From assembly GCA_964406795.1 (NCBI GenBank), contig CAYOTA010000002.1, positions 81,549-145,548 on the forward strand: a stretch of DNA of 64,000 nucleotides. Direction: 5' to 3'. This document shows positions 2,640 through 64,000 of this stretch, in pieces; within the stretch, counting starts at the first letter, position 1, and the number at the start of each line of letters is the position of its first letter. The DNA is from an uncultured Gammaproteobacteria bacterium. Its GTDB lineage: Bacteria; Patescibacteriota; Microgenomatia; Levybacterales; GWA1-39-11. The position numbers and the translations under genes are program-made. The notes under the pieces were generated by a model, which made no database searches, was not told where the DNA came from, and saw only the letters and a program-made list of their open reading frames with translations.

Positions 2640-4121
2640 TTACAATCCTGCAAAGTAGTCGGTTTTGATACTGGTGGGTTTGATTCCGAGCTTATTCAGA
2701 GTCCCTTTGACCCCATGTACCATTCCACTTGATCCAGAAATATAATATTTCCTACCTTCATAATCAGTTACTTGTGTTTTTATGACATCTTCAGTTAAAT
2801 GCTGACCCTTAGATGAATCCACATATACAGCTTTAACGCCAATTGATCTTGCTTGATCTACAATATCTTTATAGGTAAATTCATCACTACTTCCACAATA
2901 GTGAATAAAGATTATATCTCGCTTTTCTCTACTATCTATTAAATACTTCAGCATACTTCTAAATGGAGTAATCCCTATTCCACCTGCTATAAACACAAGC
3001 TTTTTTGTGGTGTCTTTCGGAAGTATAAAATCTCCTTTGAGCTGCCCTGCATATATCACGTCTCCCGGCTTTAAACTAAATAGTGCATTTTTAAATGTGC
3101 TGGACGGATTATACTTTTTAACCCCTAGCTCAAGTGCCCCTTCTGTGGGAGAAGACGCAATAGTAAAGTAACGTCTTATTCCCCTAGAATCAGCCTTTGA
3201 GTGTGGTAGTGTCCATTCCATATACTGACCTGGTTTAAATTTTACCCACGTAGGTTTATCAAATATAAATGCATCAGTAGTTGGAGACAATTTTTGAATT
3301 TTTTCAAGGGTTAACTTGAGCCTCCATTTGGGGCTCACCGCAAATGCAAAAATATTACCAATTAATAATGCAAACTCCGGTGTTACGTAAAAATTAAACA
3401 CAGGAATCTGATATGTAGTTATAATTCCCACTATTGCTCCGTAAACCATCTGCATTCTCTTAGTAGATGGGGCTGTTATAGGTTCTGTTAGTATAATTGT
3501 TCCCAAGAATAGTAATGGCCAGGAAGTAAAAGCAAACTTGAGTGTCTCTAAAGGCGGTTGATTATACGTATATCCAAAAATAAGCATAACAATAAGTGCT
3601 GGGAGTAAAAATGAAAACAGCATGGTAAATTTACGGATTTTACGTACTACCAAAAAGCCTAAAACTACCATAGGCAGCAACAATGCCTCAGATCCCACCC
3701 ACCAAGATACACCTAAACCCAAAAATCCTACCACAAATGAACCCAGTGCTGCCGGATTAAATATATGTTTCCTATGATACACAATCACATATTTAGAAGC
3801 GATAGTAAGTACGCCTGCCAAAAATACTAAAAGATAGCTTTGTAAAGTATTCGAAGGGGAAAGAATAAAAAACAAAATAAGCGACGTTATAGCGCTTGAC
3901 TCTGTATTTGATGGAATTTTTAAAAATTTGGATAACACGTGATTTGTTGCAAAACAACTTATGAATAACAATACAAATGAAACAGAAAGAACGAGTGGGT
4001 CAAGGGATAAAATTTGCAGCAATGTAAGAATGAAAGACAAAATAGCAAGTACAACCAGCCCATATAGGACTAGTCTGTACATGGTGATAGAATTCAAAAG
4101 ATTATCTATTTTAGAAAACAT
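2640..4121 (-). CDS. membrane oxidoreductase: RnfD/NqrB-like multi-TM domain fused to ferredoxin-NADP-reductase-type FAD/NAD(P)H-binding domain (NqrF-like)
   Basis: N-terminal ~280 aa with ~8 hydrophobic helices ending LTEPITAPSTKRMQMVYGAIVGIITT, resembling the conserved C-terminal motif of RnfD/NqrB; C-terminal RRYFTIASSP (FAD RxY[ST]), GDFIL, LVFIAGGIGITPFRSM (NAD GxGxxP). Confidence 0.7.
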   Translation of the reverse strand: MFSKIDNLLNSITMYRLVLYGLVVLAILSFILTLLQILSLDPLVLSVSFVLLFISCFATNHVLSKFLKIPSNTESSAITSLILFFILSPSNTLQSYLLVFLAGVLTIASKYVIVYHRKHIFNPAALGSFVVGFLGLGVSWWVGSEALLLPMVVLGFLVVRKIRKFTMLFSFLLPALIVMLIFGYTYNQPPLETLKFAFTSWPLLFLGTIILTEPITAPSTKRMQMVYGAIVGIITTYQIPVFNFYVTPEFALLIGNIFAFAVSPKWRLKLTLEKIQKLSPTTDAFIFDKPTWVKFKPGQYMEWTLPHSKADSRGIRRYFTIASSPTEGALELGVKKYNPSSTFKNALFSLKPGDVIYAGQLKGDFILPKDTTKKLVFIAGGIGITPFRSMLKYLIDSREKRDIIFIHYCGSSDEFTYKDIVDQARSIGVKAVYVDSSKGQHLTEDVIKTQVTDYEGRKYYISGSSGMVHGVKGTLNKLGIKPTSIKTDYFAGL

Positions 4122-5646: not shown

Positions 5647-6348
5647 TTAATGAACAACAAGTAGATTAAGAGCCGTTGTTACTACATATATAGCAACTAT
5701 TCTCAAAATAAGCATTGCGGTGTCTTTTAGCACAAATCCCTTTCTGCATTCATGGTGAATTTCATAAATTGAATCAGATAGCGCTATGTAAATAAAGAAA
5801 ACGGCAGTAATAGGGGGAAACACTGTTTGAATTATAAATTCACCTAAATCACTAAATACAAACATGAGTGTTGCACCTAGAAAGGGAAGCTTCTGCAGGA
5901 AAAACATTAATAAAAATAATCTTTTTGATTTAATTTTTCCTTAAGCAGTACCTCAAAGTTCCCAATCTCCTCCTACGGCAATTGACGTCACAATTCCTTG
6001 AGGAATATTAACAAGAAATGAAGCAGCAATAACTATTCAATCTATAAAACTATGCATGGTGTCCACGAACACAATAAGTGACACTATGGGTTCTCTTTTT
6101 ATTATCTCTCAATCACTTGAAGGGTGATGCGACCAGTGTAAAAAGCGCTCAAATAAGAAAAAGAAGAGTATTCCACTAGGTACACCTATACCTACTGTTT
6201 CAGAAGTGGGTTCATGTACGGATTCAGGAAGTAAATCAAAAAAAACGGTACTCAAAATCGATCCAGCTGCAAATGAAGAAAATAAATGGGAGATATTGTT
6301 TGATAATTTAGGACGGGTTAAAAGATGCATTCCCCCAAGTAATGACAA
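5647..6348 (-). pseudogene. fragmented ZIP-family metal transporter (zupT-like) remnant
   Basis: Two short ORFs (79 aa FDLLPESVHEPTSETVGIGV...HWSHH; 86 aa ...SDSIYEIHHECRKG...) resemble the N- and C-terminal thirds of ZIP/ZupT transporters; the ~200 bp between them has no intact frame. Confidence 0.4.
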
Positions 6349-27731: not shown

Positions 27732-27776
27732 AGCTTAAATATACAATAGAAAGTCCGGGGTGTAAATATATAGTTG

Positions 27777-27849
27777 TGCGCCTGAAGGGACTCGAACCCC
27801 CAACCGCCTCGTCCGAAGCGAGGTGCTCTATCCATTAAGCTACAGGCGC
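27777..27849 (-). tRNA. tRNA-Arg (anticodon TCG)
   Basis: Acceptor GCGCCTG/CAGGCGC, D-arm GCTT-AATGGATA-GAGC, anticodon loop CTTCGGA, T-loop TTCGAGT, discriminator A; 73 nt. Confidence 0.8.
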
Positions 27850-28018
27850 ATGTATCCTGCCTGTATCTTGCGAACTTTGCTCGCGCAAAATTTTTAAGCT
27901 ACAGGCGCTTATGCTAACCACGATCCACAAGGCTTATAGATTTTAACAAATTGAGATCACGCAAGCAATAAAAGTAAGTTAAAAGACTTATGTACACGTA
28001 TACTGGTATAATGAACGC

Positions 28019-61325: not shown

Positions 61326-62027
61326 ATGTCCGAATTCTACAGACCTTTACGTCAAGAACTATCTAAAAATCCTGAAAACCTAAAGGCCATGTTTACAGCT
61401 ATTAACTCTTCTAAAGGTTCCATAACTAAAGCCAATACCTGTTTTATTGATTCAGTATTTGGAGTTCCCATTTTAAAAAGTAGTCAAGAGTATATACAAA
61501 CAACTAATCCCAATACTGGAGAGGTACGATACCTTGATTTTCCGTATGAAGGGACATCATACGACAATATAAGAAATGTTCTTGAAACTGTTAAGCCTTC
61601 AAAGGATGACACCGTCATGGACATAGGATCGGGGTATGGAAGATTTTGTCTATTTGGAGCGCTTACAACAGATGCTTCCTTCGTAGGTATTGAGACTGTA
61701 CAAAAACGCTATGAAGCGGCTCAAGCCGCAAAGGAATCTCTAGATATTCCTAATGTAGCCTTTACAGACTCTGACGTATTAAATTACGATTTATCTAATG
61801 GGTCTATTTTTTATATGTTTAACCCATTTTATCCTTTTGGGTTTGATGCTCAATGGAAGGTAGAAGAAAAACTGAGGGAATTAAGTAGAAAAAAGCCAAT
61901 TCAGATTGTAACATTATCCATGACGGGTGTTTTCCCTATGATTAGAGACGGACAATTTGAGGAGGTTGAAAGAATAAGCACCCGCCAAATGAAACTTCAA
62001 TTTTATAAATCAAAACCCATTACATAA
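61326..62027 (+). CDS. class I SAM-dependent methyltransferase
   Basis: Motif I VMDIGSGYGRF, motif post-I (FVGIE), motif II (IFYMFNPF). Confidence 0.65.
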   Translation: MSEFYRPLRQELSKNPENLKAMFTAINSSKGSITKANTCFIDSVFGVPILKSSQEYIQTTNPNTGEVRYLDFPYEGTSYDNIRNVLETVKPSKDDTVMDIGSGYGRFCLFGALTTDASFVGIETVQKRYEAAQAAKESLDIPNVAFTDSDVLNYDLSNGSIFYMFNPFYPFGFDAQWKVEEKLRELSRKKPIQIVTLSMTGVFPMIRDGQFEEVERISTRQMKLQFYKSKPIT

Positions 62028-62050: not shown

Positions 62051-62887
62051 CTACAAAAGAGACCGCAAGATACTTAAGGTTTTTTTAGGTTGAGAGCTAA
62101 AAACCACATGGTCAGCGTCCTCTATTATAATTTGCATATCTACATAATCTTGAGTTGATAGCAGCAATTTGTCTTTTGAGCCGTACATAAACACAGTTTC
62201 ATTTTTCACATTTTTAAGCAATGACTGTACACGTTTATCTTTCTTTTCAAACATATTAATATCAGTTAATGATTCTACGCCAGTGGACAACATAGCGTCA
62301 TATAATGTTTTGTCTCGTTTTTTATCTGTTATACCTATAACATCTTTAAATATAGGAATTAGTATTCTTTTGCGAGCAAAAGATGATAACGCGAGTGTGC
62401 GTCTTATGCGTAAAGGTAAAAATGAAGCCATACGTAATTTCATATTCTTAACATTTCCCGGCAGTCCTATGAGTATAAGTTTTCCACTTACACTCCCCTT
62501 TGAGGCTGATTTTATAGCTGTTACGGCACCTAAAGAAAATCCAACCAGGGGCACAGCAGAAAGTTTTTTGTGTCTTATAAAAGCATCTAATGCATTACTA
62601 AATAATTCTGTGTCATGCACTGCTCCCCTTACTGTTTCTGAAGCACCAAAGCCTGGAAGGTCTAACAGGTAGAGCTTGTAGTGTTTTGCGAGCTCAAATT
62701 CTATATCACACCATGGATCGTGAGACATAGAACCATGAACTAAAATAACAGGATTACCACGTCCTAGCACTGTATAGTTCATGACAGTACCCTGAAACTG
62801 GTATGTTTTCGATTTCGGAATTTTTAATCTCTTCACCACAACATTATTACATATTAAACGAAGTAAATCTGAACTATGATTGAACAA
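62051..62887 (-). CDS. alpha/beta hydrolase
   Basis: HG motif VILVHGSMSH, nucleophile elbow VGFSLGAV (GxSxG); 278 aa. Confidence 0.7.
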   Translation of the reverse strand: MFNHSSDLLRLICNNVVVKRLKIPKSKTYQFQGTVMNYTVLGRGNPVILVHGSMSHDPWCDIEFELAKHYKLYLLDLPGFGASETVRGAVHDTELFSNALDAFIRHKKLSAVPLVGFSLGAVTAIKSASKGSVSGKLILIGLPGNVKNMKLRMASFLPLRIRRTLALSSFARKRILIPIFKDVIGITDKKRDKTLYDAMLSTGVESLTDINMFEKKDKRVQSLLKNVKNETVFMYGSKDKLLLSTQDYVDMQIIIEDADHVVFSSQPKKTLSILRSLL

Positions 62888-62914: not shown

Positions 62915-62934
62915 TAGTGATCCGACCGGGGCTC
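62915..62934. repeat. 20-bp direct repeat of the tRNA-Lys(TTT) 3' end (att-like), partner at 63791-63810
   Basis: tagtgatccgaccggggctc occurs identically at 62915-62934 and 63791-63810; the second copy covers the 3'-terminal 17 nt of the tRNA plus 3 nt beyond. Confidence 0.8.
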
Positions 62935-62942
62935 AGCATATC

Positions 62943-63770
62943 TCATTTTAATTGTTTTACCGCAGTTAGTTCAATTTTCTTTGTTTTCTGTTTTATTCTT
63001 GTTCTTGCTTTATTAATCCCATCAGGAACTGGCAGATTTTCAGGCATGCTTCCACCTAATTCCCTTATGGTTTGACGTACTTTACGCCCTACCTCAAAAT
63101 GAGCATAATTTGCTTTGGCTTCTCCATGAATATTTTCTCTTTTTAATTTAGCATCAGCTTGAGTTGCCCTAAAAAGATTTGCAGCAAGCTCTTCACTTCC
63201 CATATAATCCAAGATCTTTTGACTCGATTTTAACCGCTTCTTTCTGTGAATCTGTTGCGTGTCTAATCCTCCATAAAGTCCCATATACCCATAATTCGTA
63301 AACACTCCATAATTTTGCACCCCAGCACGAGATGCAGTTTCAGCCAAATGCTTATTGTGGGCTGTCATCTCGTCTCTTAACAATACACGCTTGTGATCTT
63401 CTGCGATTTGATCTTGAAATTCTTGTCTTCTTGCTTGAATAGCAAAATATGTCTGACCAAGAGCAACTATCTGTTTGGAAGGATCCGCATTTTGCATAAC
63501 TAAGTAACATGCATATCTAGAAAGTAAAATATCCTTAATTTCTCGTGATGCGGTTTTACCTAATTCGATCATATCGAGCACATCCTCGAAATGATCCATA
63601 GTATTTTGGCTACTTTTTACACATGCTTCTTTTGCGCGCTCAATAACCGGAAGAAAATGTCTATATTCGGAGTACTCGAGGGTTTTTGCGAGTTCTCGGG
63701 CAGACCAATATTCAGACCCATATTTATTTACTTTTTTAATTTTCTCAAAAGCGAGTATTGGATTTTCCAT
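62943..63770 (-). CDS. dinD: DNA-damage-inducible protein D (DinD family)-like
   Basis: From ATG 63770: MENPILAFEKIKKVNKYGSEYWSARELAKTLEYSEYRHFLPVIERAKEAC...SRYACYLVMQNADP...QTYFAIQARRQE...HFEVGRKVRQTIRELGG resembles the DinD family as I recall it; the longer listed ORF runs into the tRNA. Confidence 0.6.
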   Translation of the reverse strand: MENPILAFEKIKKVNKYGSEYWSARELAKTLEYSEYRHFLPVIERAKEACVKSSQNTMDHFEDVLDMIELGKTASREIKDILLSRYACYLVMQNADPSKQIVALGQTYFAIQARRQEFQDQIAEDHKRVLLRDEMTAHNKHLAETASRAGVQNYGVFTNYGYMGLYGGLDTQQIHRKKRLKSSQKILDYMGSEELAANLFRATQADAKLKRENIHGEAKANYAHFEVGRKVRQTIRELGGSMPENLPVPDGINKARTRIKQKTKKIELTAVKQLK

Positions 63771-63793
63771 AGTGGTTATAGCGAAGAAGATAG

Positions 63794-63865
63794 TGATCCG
63801 ACCGGGGCTCGAACCCGGAACCAAAAGCTTAAAAGGCTTTTGCTCTACCATTGAGCTATCGGACC
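63794..63865 (-). tRNA. tRNA-Lys (anticodon TTT)
   Basis: Acceptor GGTCCGA/TCGGATC (one G-U), D-arm GCTC-AATGGTA-GAGC, anticodon loop CTTTTAA, T-loop TTCGAGC, discriminator A; 72 nt. Confidence 0.8.
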
Positions 63866-64000
63866 ATATTATTAATTAACCACTTGATGTACTTTTTACT
63901 TTTATAAGACTTTAACTTTTTCTCTCTGTTCCTTGCATCAAGTATCGTATCAAACTTTTCTTTATAAACAAGCTTGTTTGTACCTAACACTCTTGTTGTT

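Follow-up and report, generated by a model that had tools for sequence, protein, structure and literature searches.

A lone dinD gene between two copies of a tRNA-Lys 3' end: a probable integration scar at a recurrent insertion site of a Patescibacteria lineage

How does a single gene come to lie between two exact copies of the 3' end of a tRNA gene, and what put it there? The question is raised by a 64,000-nucleotide stretch of DNA (the window, 64 kb) from an uncultured bacterium of the Patescibacteria (candidate phyla radiation, CPR; NCBI assembly GCA_964406795.1, contig CAYOTA010000002.1), towards whose end a dinD gene stands directly behind a tRNA-Lys(TTT) gene and is followed by a second copy of the last nucleotides of that tRNA. 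A first reading of these data, made from the letters before any database search (the sequence-only reading), had taken this islet for the scar of a site-specific integration. The answer that we regard as probable goes in the same direction: the islet would be the product of a site-specific recombination of the tyrosine-integrase type into the 3' end of tRNA-Lys(TTT), i.e., an integrase-less module bounded by attL- and attR-like copies and similar to a cis-mobilizable element (CIME), and tRNA-Lys(TTT) would be a recurrent insertion hot spot of this lineage.

The first element of the answer is the repeat itself. The 20-mer TAGTGATCCGACCGGGGCTC occurs in two exact copies in the window, at the positions given by the sequence-only reading (Table 1), and no further match appears in the 64 kb even if up to three mismatches are allowed, nor was any obtained in 100 dinucleotide-preserving shuffles (0 expected). 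On the strand of the tRNA the repeat reads GAGCCCCGGTCGGATCAC+TA, and it comprises 17 nucleotides of the tRNA (four from the end of the T-loop, the 3' strands of T-stem and acceptor stem, and the discriminator A) followed by C and TA. This division into 17 and 3 nucleotides, as originally proposed, is correct by the structure of the tRNA, and becomes 18 and 2 by the end coordinate of ARAGORN, which agrees on the tRNA and its minus strand and has it start at 63793 instead of 63794. The identity ends abruptly at both edges of the 20 bp. A stretch that begins in the T-loop and extends slightly beyond the tRNA is a classical sublocation of integrase att cores, and the repeat has the anatomy of an att pair, in line with the attL/attR-type duplication first suggested. 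Among the nine tRNA genes of the window, tRNA-Lys(TTT) is the only one with a displaced 3'-end fragment, while none of the other eight has its 3' end copied elsewhere. Could the repeat be a coincidence, or have been created by the assembly? The source is probably a metagenome-assembled genome, which invites the suspicion of an artefact, but the lack of matches in the shuffles and the same architecture in the independent assembly of a relative (L093, described below) make either possibility barely credible; 20 bp is, furthermore, shorter than the usual final assembly k-mers.

The second element is the content of the islet, an 876-bp insert in which the dinD open reading frame (ORF) is the only plausible gene. 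Its product matches the NCBIfam family NF008573, "DNA damage-inducible protein D", with 369.3 bits (cut-off 242), residues 7-268 being aligned to positions 12-282 of the 288 in the profile, and Pfam places a Bro-N domain (PF02498) at its N-terminus, so that the membership of the DinD family, at first assigned by eye, is confirmed by hidden Markov models. The ATG of dinD lies 22 nt from the ARAGORN end of the tRNA (the sequence-only reading had counted 23 nt), and its stop codon lies 8 nt from the distal copy of the repeat. There is no recombinase gene between the copies, as had been noted, and dinD itself matches no recombinase family of Pfam or NCBIfam.

How would such an arrangement arise by integration? 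The incoming DNA would have carried a copy of the last 17 nt of the tRNA plus a few more, and crossing-over in the T-loop would have rebuilt tRNA-Lys with this incoming copy, displacing the original 3' end, together with the native trailer and the hydrolase gene behind it, by 876 bp. In the distal copy one would then see the old 3' end of the tRNA gene, which has kept its native trailer. Before the event, the attB junction would have been the tRNA joined directly to AAATCAGCTGG..., and the junction of the circular form would have read ...GATATGCT-GAGCCCCGGTCGGATCACTA-TCTTCTTCGC... As for the recombination genes, they may have been lost later (CPR genomes are strongly streamlined), or the module may always have been non-autonomous and moved by an integrase encoded elsewhere. 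Since the spacers of 22 nt and 8 nt on either side of dinD hold no remnant of other genes, decay and primary non-autonomy are not separable here, and a module moved in trans fits the data equally well as a degraded element. From the original description of a degraded integrative element with surviving cargo, the integration is thus retained, and the degradation becomes one of two possible readings, given the lack of remnants in the spacers and the fact that the modules of the relatives are integrase-less too.

It is the comparison with relatives that gives this interpretation its weight, and on such comparative, sequence-based evidence the islet appears well supported as an integration scar. 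Five related loci were reached through orthologs of the hydrolase (70-76% identity), and these five relatives show five different contents at the site, one of them with an equivalent repeat. That one is L093, which, like L094, shares synteny with the window beyond the hydrolase gene (a 197-aa membrane protein, purH and an MscS-like gene, with 83-90% amino acid identity; for L093, the identities to the window are 76% for the hydrolase, 88% for the MscS-like protein and 83% for PurH). Its contig begins inside tRNA-Lys, the 3' part of which is identical to that of the window, and it contains a 25-bp repeat, GAGCCCCGGTCGGATCACAAACTAA, at 38-62 and 2138-2162, with the distal copy directly upstream of the orthologous hydrolase gene. 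This repeat starts at the same G of the T-loop as the repeat of the window and encloses a different cargo: a 288-aa protein without any family match and a CAP-domain protein, with neither dinD nor an integrase.

Three other loci add variation of the same kind. In L094 the site is occupied by a fragment of a RelA_SpoT-domain ORF and an S51 peptidase gene, and all that is left beside the hydrolase gene is TCGGtTCAC with the conserved trailer. In L095, tRNA-Lys(TTT) is followed by genes for proteins of 109 and 499 aa and then by the hydrolase gene, the spacer next to the latter containing a 3' fragment of tRNA-Glu (23 of 24 positions identical to the tRNA-Glu of the same locus); a 17-nt 3' fragment of tRNA-Lys is found, inverted, beside and downstream of tRNA-Glu (the two tRNA genes and the fragments lie at 2394-2410, 2492-2566, 3589-3662 and 5845-5874). 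Each fragment is thereby co-oriented with the "wrong" tRNA, the Lys fragment by tRNA-Glu and the Glu fragment by tRNA-Lys, which is the arrangement that an inversion between two islets linked to tRNA genes would leave behind. L107 has a DUF4395 gene and an aldo-keto reductase gene upstream of the hydrolase gene, and there is no tRNA on its contig. In the window, L093, L094 and L095 there are seven cargo genes, and all of them read in the same direction as the tRNA, whose 5' flank is conserved and whose 3' flank is variable, and none of the cargo of the relatives has a match in PADLOC. Degenerate matches to the tRNA-Lys 3' end are also found in spacers between modules (shuffle p 0.007, 0.013 and <0.001), passing when the test is restricted to these spacers and failing the threshold for whole loci. 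Together with the fragments of L095, they offer moderate evidence of serial integration and rearrangement at this site. The RelA_SpoT ORF of L094 (3-404), interrupted by the contig end, scores 28.6 bits in Pfam (cut-off 27) and could be a toxin-type small alarmone synthetase.

How old are these repeats? At the 4-fold degenerate sites of housekeeping genes, window and L093 are 42-50% identical, i.e., near saturation. A neutral fragment of 17-25 nt cannot stay perfect for so long, so the distal fragments must have belonged to a functional tRNA until recently, and their perfection in both genomes despite this near saturation points to two independent insertions younger than the split. The boundary that these two independent insertions have in common is in turn the most weighty argument in favour of a site-specific recombinase.

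Nonetheless, there is a series of results that weigh against an integrase-mediated insertion. No tyrosine- or serine-recombinase signature was found in the window ORFs of at least 100 aa, by a crude motif scan, and the modules of the relatives contain no integrase, recombinase or replication gene. No autonomous element with this att core was present in the viral and metagenome collections scanned: of three variants of the tRNA-Lys 3' end, scanned against viral contigs, one gave two high-GC chance matches, another a single match that lies within a phage tRNA-Arg, and the third no match; for the pattern DGAGCCCCGGTCGGATCAC there were 10 matches in metagenomes, all in contigs of 58-75% GC without a tRNA and thus attributable to chance (the GC content of the window is 37%). 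The empty site predicted by the sequence-only reading, in which tRNA-Lys would be directly followed by the hydrolase gene, is absent from all five hydrolase-ortholog loci. A deviation in GC content and codon usage was likewise looked for and is lacking in dinD (GC 0.373 against a gene mean of 0.378; rank 21 of 51 in codon distance). Finally, in a more distant CPR relative (L085, GCA_964642555.1, 5961-6831) dinD begins with its ATG immediately after tRNA-Lys(TTT), without a single spacer nucleotide, and a distal repeat is lacking (none within 6.8 kb). Two short copies of the tRNA 5' end (GTCCGGTAAGTC) are also observed upstream of the tRNA in L085.

Does the gene then stand behind tRNA-Lys(TTT) by inheritance? 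The L085 copy, the ordinary composition of dinD and the saturation of its synonymous sites would suit an old vertical arrangement, in which dinD behind this tRNA is ancestral and the 20-mer is an unrelated partial duplication of the tRNA. We consider this improbable, for those of the sampled relatives that keep the synteny on the hydrolase side (L093 and L094) carry other genes, a neutral 20-mer would have accumulated changes over divergences of this size, and the repeat brackets the gene exactly. Furthermore, a neighbour-joining tree (without support values) separates the two copies adjacent to tRNA-Lys, which are not sisters: the dinD of the window groups with P0002, P0003 and P0005, from non-tRNA sites, and that of L085 with P0007, P0013 and P0015. 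A relative that carries dinD at this position without any repeat, named by the sequence-only reading as one of two findings that would speak against integration, exists in part, but its copy is no sister in this simple tree and its downstream context differs from that of the window. No donor of dinD can be pointed out, since its synonymous sites are saturated in the comparison with each of the homologs sampled.

A more serious alternative emerges from dinD genes at other sites. In 80 genome loci, and with the remaining ORFs of these loci (200 aa or more) as controls, direct repeats bracket 9 of 72 dinD ORFs vs 2 of 561 control ORFs (odds ratio ~40, Fisher p 9e-8), and with a looser threshold 13 of the 80 dinD loci have flanking direct repeats. 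Loci with such repeats are L001, L017, L019, L037, L039, L043, L048, L055-L059, L062 and L081. Each locus has a repeat of its own, with a length of 23-162 bp and an identity of 80-93% (60 bp and 93% in the CPR locus L081), and two kinds can be told apart: in the first, the duplicated sequence is the 3' end of a co-oriented gene that precedes dinD (L056, metF; L019, an ImmA-like gene; L081, a 261-aa ORF), and in the second it is the promoter or ribosome-binding site (RBS) of the gene that follows (L048, L055). The homology between dinD copies at different loci ends between -27 and +29 nt of the ORF, and no recombinase is encoded in any of these repeat-bounded units. A general insertion process without an integrase, acting at many non-tRNA sites, could also explain the repeat of the window, and this weighs against the integrase as well: dinD would move as an ORF-sized piece by a process that duplicates the adjacent target, the tRNA end being duplicated incidentally, through homology-facilitated illegitimate recombination after DNA uptake, a Campbell-type single crossover of a circle with a short homologous segment, or template switching during replication.

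All three of these facts, the enrichment, the extent of the homology and the missing recombinases, are in favour of such a process, and still we judge it rather unlikely for the window. With arbitrary join points, one would not expect the repeat around a different cargo in L093 to have the same T-loop boundary, and an exact identity of 20-25 bp that ends just past the tRNA is typical of att cores; this common T-loop boundary makes an integrase the more likely cause of the islet. Gene-3'-end duplications of about 90% identity are, besides, also left by integrases that target gene ends, as in e14 and phage 21 at icd, and integrases acting in trans would fit. The enrichment itself may partly reflect the frequent transfer of dinD, since the control ORFs are mostly core genes. 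The repeats around dinD in general may then be the same phenomenon, with integrases in trans and a gene end supplied by the donor, or a different, undescribed route of insertion.

The second of these options can be pushed further, although we hold it for a tentative and unlikely proposal. Across phyla, dinD might be a free-moving cassette of the size of its ORF, without a recombinase of its own, which duplicates 20-160 bp of its target and is inserted directly downstream of a co-oriented gene (here the tRNA) or behind a duplicated promoter or RBS. The route of mobilisation would be an undescribed one, using a trans-acting enzyme or a recombination linked to an activity of DinD on DNA breaks or directed at RecA, and the tRNA-Lys site of the CPR would be, in a manner reminiscent of integrons, an array of single-gene cassettes with fragments of tRNA ends as junctions. 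Independently of this proposal, the strong enrichment of repeats around dinD in many phyla suggests an unusual mode of spread for a very conserved and poorly understood gene.

Could DinD even move itself? What is known about the protein and its family bears on this question. The family is very widespread and unusually well conserved (50-75% identity across phyla, in 80 species representatives). The DinD of the window is 100% identical to a database entry, P0001, and the hydrolase likewise has an identical entry on the same NCBI contig; those close homologs that have a source name are mostly labelled as Patescibacteria (CPR). The closest ones, with 78-84% identity, stand in unrelated contexts: beside hsdM (84%, by BLASTP), between housekeeping genes (82% and 81%) and abutting tRNA-Lys(TTT) in L085 (78%). 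The gene hsdM is present in the fetched flank of 16 of 89 dinD loci, among them 4 of the 5 closest genome representatives, and is usually adjacent; in a Pacebacteria genome, dinD is part of a type I restriction-modification (R-M) operon, hsdM-dinD-hsdS-x-hsdR, whose context is the same on 24/24 contigs read. Published genomes also have dinD inside type I R-M genes or fused to them (PMC4996451, PMC9881135). The protein of the window gives, moreover, a full-length match to PDC-S13, a candidate defence family of PADLOC for which no mention was found in the literature searched, and matches as well the N-terminal part of the PADLOC type I Specificity_I fusion model. Full-length homologs occur in 42 phage records, and in streptococcal phage satellites dinD lies directly beside the tyrosine integrase gene, which makes it a real cargo of integrase-bearing elements. 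A tRNA of any kind lies within 1.5 kb of dinD in 5 of the 80 genome loci (within ~0.4 kb in all five), none of which has a tRNA-end repeat; targeting of tRNAs is consequently not a general property of dinD. In sum, dinD is a widely transferred, defence-island-associated gene. In the Pacebacteria operon (L125-L128; 117-953 and 3001-3813), dinD overlaps hsdM and hsdS by 8 nt each, and a second Bro-N protein, of 268-278 aa, is encoded two genes upstream.

The AlphaFold model of DinD points to what the protein might do. Its only significant matches in the PDB are to DdrC from Deinococcus radiodurans (Foldseek E 1.8e-6 to 9.5e-4, probability 1.0), with ~240 aligned columns that cover both domains, and no link between the two was found at the sequence level. 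DdrC is induced by DNA damage and acts as a sensor and stabiliser of DNA breaks, and the work describing it reports no identifiable sequence homologs outside Deinococcus and does not mention DinD (PMC11347143). On the basis of this model, DinD and DdrC, two DNA-binding proteins induced by DNA damage, may be linked at the level of the fold in a way not reported so far, and a role of DinD in the binding of DNA breaks is suggested. As for activity, Uranga et al. reportedly found in 2011 that E. coli DinD inhibits RecA filaments, and we know of no report of a DNA-cleaving or DNA-joining activity of this protein.

A single-protein element that recognises gene 3' ends, with DinD as its own mobiliser, would make sense of a mobile unit that is essentially the ORF alone and of flanking repeats that recur across phyla, and the protein is unusually conserved (50-57% identity among CPR, Firmicutes and Proteobacteria, with many invariant Tyr, Arg and His residues). 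We nevertheless find it very improbable: the only significant structural matches are those to DdrC, a non-catalytic DNA-binding protein, with no recombinase or nuclease fold or family among them; the gene is stable and translationally coupled in hsdM-dinD-hsdS operons of many genomes (the 24 contigs mentioned above); and a published list of proteins that regulate RecA activity includes the DinD of E. coli (PMC4457935). By its predicted function, DinD looks like a non-enzymatic DNA-binding accessory protein, a passenger of the insertion and not its agent.

How would such a passenger be expressed? Between tRNA and dinD there is no sigma-70-like promoter and no terminator, the only "terminator" match being the T arm and acceptor of the tRNA itself, and because of this lack co-transcription with tRNA-Lys is the default expectation and the most likely situation. 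The read-through from the tRNA promoter put forward by the sequence-only reading is in this sense compatible with the interval, and co-transcription is probable on these grounds. As regards control of the SOS/LexA type, known for the dinD of E. coli, there are only 22 nt between tRNA and dinD and no promoter-like site was seen in them. Two other CPR copies (L081 and L118) share a leader of ~38 nt with a TATAAT box, which the copy of the window does not have; compared by eye, the 20-nt leader of the window may be homologous to the 3' part of theirs. In L085, the dinD mRNA would be essentially leaderless after the 3' processing of the tRNA.

The favoured interpretation, an integrase-mediated insertion, also has to be placed among the known systems. 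Elements of the P4 type that integrate into tRNA genes, as well as e14 and phage 21 at icd, are many kb long and encode their own integrase; the islet resembles them in the extent of the duplication, which begins within the gene, ends shortly after it and leaves the target gene intact, but differs in its 876 bp and in having no integrase of its own. With the cassettes of integrons it has in common a promoterless single ORF of ~0.9 kb, co-oriented and probably expressed from a resident promoter upstream, and the arrays of modules in the relatives, whereas it has no imperfect palindrome of the attC type (RNA folding around the distal repeat is not significant, z +0.74), neither IntI nor attI was found, and a fragment of tRNA would serve as the recombination site. 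The closest parallel is that of CIMEs, which are defined by the retention of attL and attR and the lack of genes for integration and transfer (PMC5704250). The streptococcal representatives derived from integrative and conjugative or mobilizable elements (ICEs and IMEs) likewise have attL and attR from the 3' end of the target gene and a site of tandem accretion (PMC5704250), but the islet is a single gene in 876 bp with no related autonomous ICE or IME known in the lineage, and conjugation is not known from its CPR host. In Prochlorococcus, islands derived from tycheposons consist of integrations separated by partial tRNA copies, with degenerate remnants and extra partial tRNAs scattered around (bioRxiv 10.1101/2020.12.28.424599). 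Tycheposon islands are thus also tRNA-linked hot spots of streamlined genomes with partial tRNA copies between integrations; the islet and its relatives differ in the phylum, in their modules of one or two genes, and in the lack of a tyrosine recombinase or replication module in the five loci. Finally, the full-length matches to NF008573 and PDC-S13 relate the dinD of the window to E. coli DinD, to PDC-S13 and to the homologs embedded in type I R-M systems or fused to them, but it is an orphan beside a tRNA.

Seen in this way, an integrase-less, att-bounded tRNA islet is a clear-cut case of a known process and as such fairly ordinary, and little documented in this phylum. To our knowledge, CPR genomes (Patescibacteria) are tiny and have few recognised mobile elements, and the different integrase-less modules of one or two genes in each relative give an idea of how accessory genes can turn over in them, the accessory gene here being a candidate for defence or for the response to DNA damage. 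The att core GAGCCCCGGTCGGATCAC provides, in addition, a concrete handle for seeking the missing recombinase.

Table 1. Features of the tRNA-Lys(TTT) site and its flanks in the window (positions of the 64-kb stretch).
Feature	Positions	Strand	Basis
tRNA-Lys(TTT), intact, no encoded CCA; putative integration target	63793..63865	-	ARAGORN; sequence and arm assignment
Proximal 20-bp repeat copy (attL-like core): T-loop GAGC, 3' T-stem, 3' acceptor strand, discriminator, CTA	63791..63810	-	exact match
20-nt leader, repeat to dinD ATG	63771..63790	-	no promoter-like or terminator-like site, no Shine-Dalgarno
dinD, 275 aa, N-terminal Bro-N and helical C-terminal region; sole cargo	62943..63770	-	NF008573 E 1.3e-110; PF02498; PDC-S13 E 2.9e-111; AlphaFold pLDDT 84.5
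8-nt spacer, dinD stop to distal repeat	62935..62942	-	sequence
Distal 20-bp repeat copy (attR-like)	62915..62934	-	exact match; equivalent copy in L093
Alpha/beta-hydrolase gene, conserved flank anchoring the site in relatives, outside the insert	62051..62887	-	Pfam Abhydrolase_6/1; orthologs 70-76% identity; synteny
3' end of ORF upstream of tRNA, runs off the window; stable 5' flank	63856..64000	-	GIY-YIG C-terminus by eye only

The surroundings of the site add some minor observations. The ORF upstream of the tRNA, which has no match in Pfam or NCBIfam, overlaps with its stop codon the first 10 nt of tRNA-Lys, and a remnant homologous to it lies upstream of tRNA-Lys in L095. On the other side, between the hydrolase gene and that of a 196-aa membrane protein, there is a gene with a class I methyltransferase fold (61326-62027, plus strand), with weak matches to Methyltransf_31/DOT1 in Pfam and to mad2 in PADLOC; its absence from the syntenic L093 and L094 makes it a second small indel in the neighbourhood. 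Large ORFs of the window that had been suspected to encode a type I R-M system are in fact uvrA, uvrB and uvrC, and there was no R-M gene among the eight large window ORFs scanned against Pfam. Elsewhere in the window, the 15 nt GCGCCTGTAGCTTAA at 27894-27908 on the minus strand repeat the 5' end of tRNA-Arg(TCG) exactly and lie 44 nt upstream of this tRNA (27776-27849).

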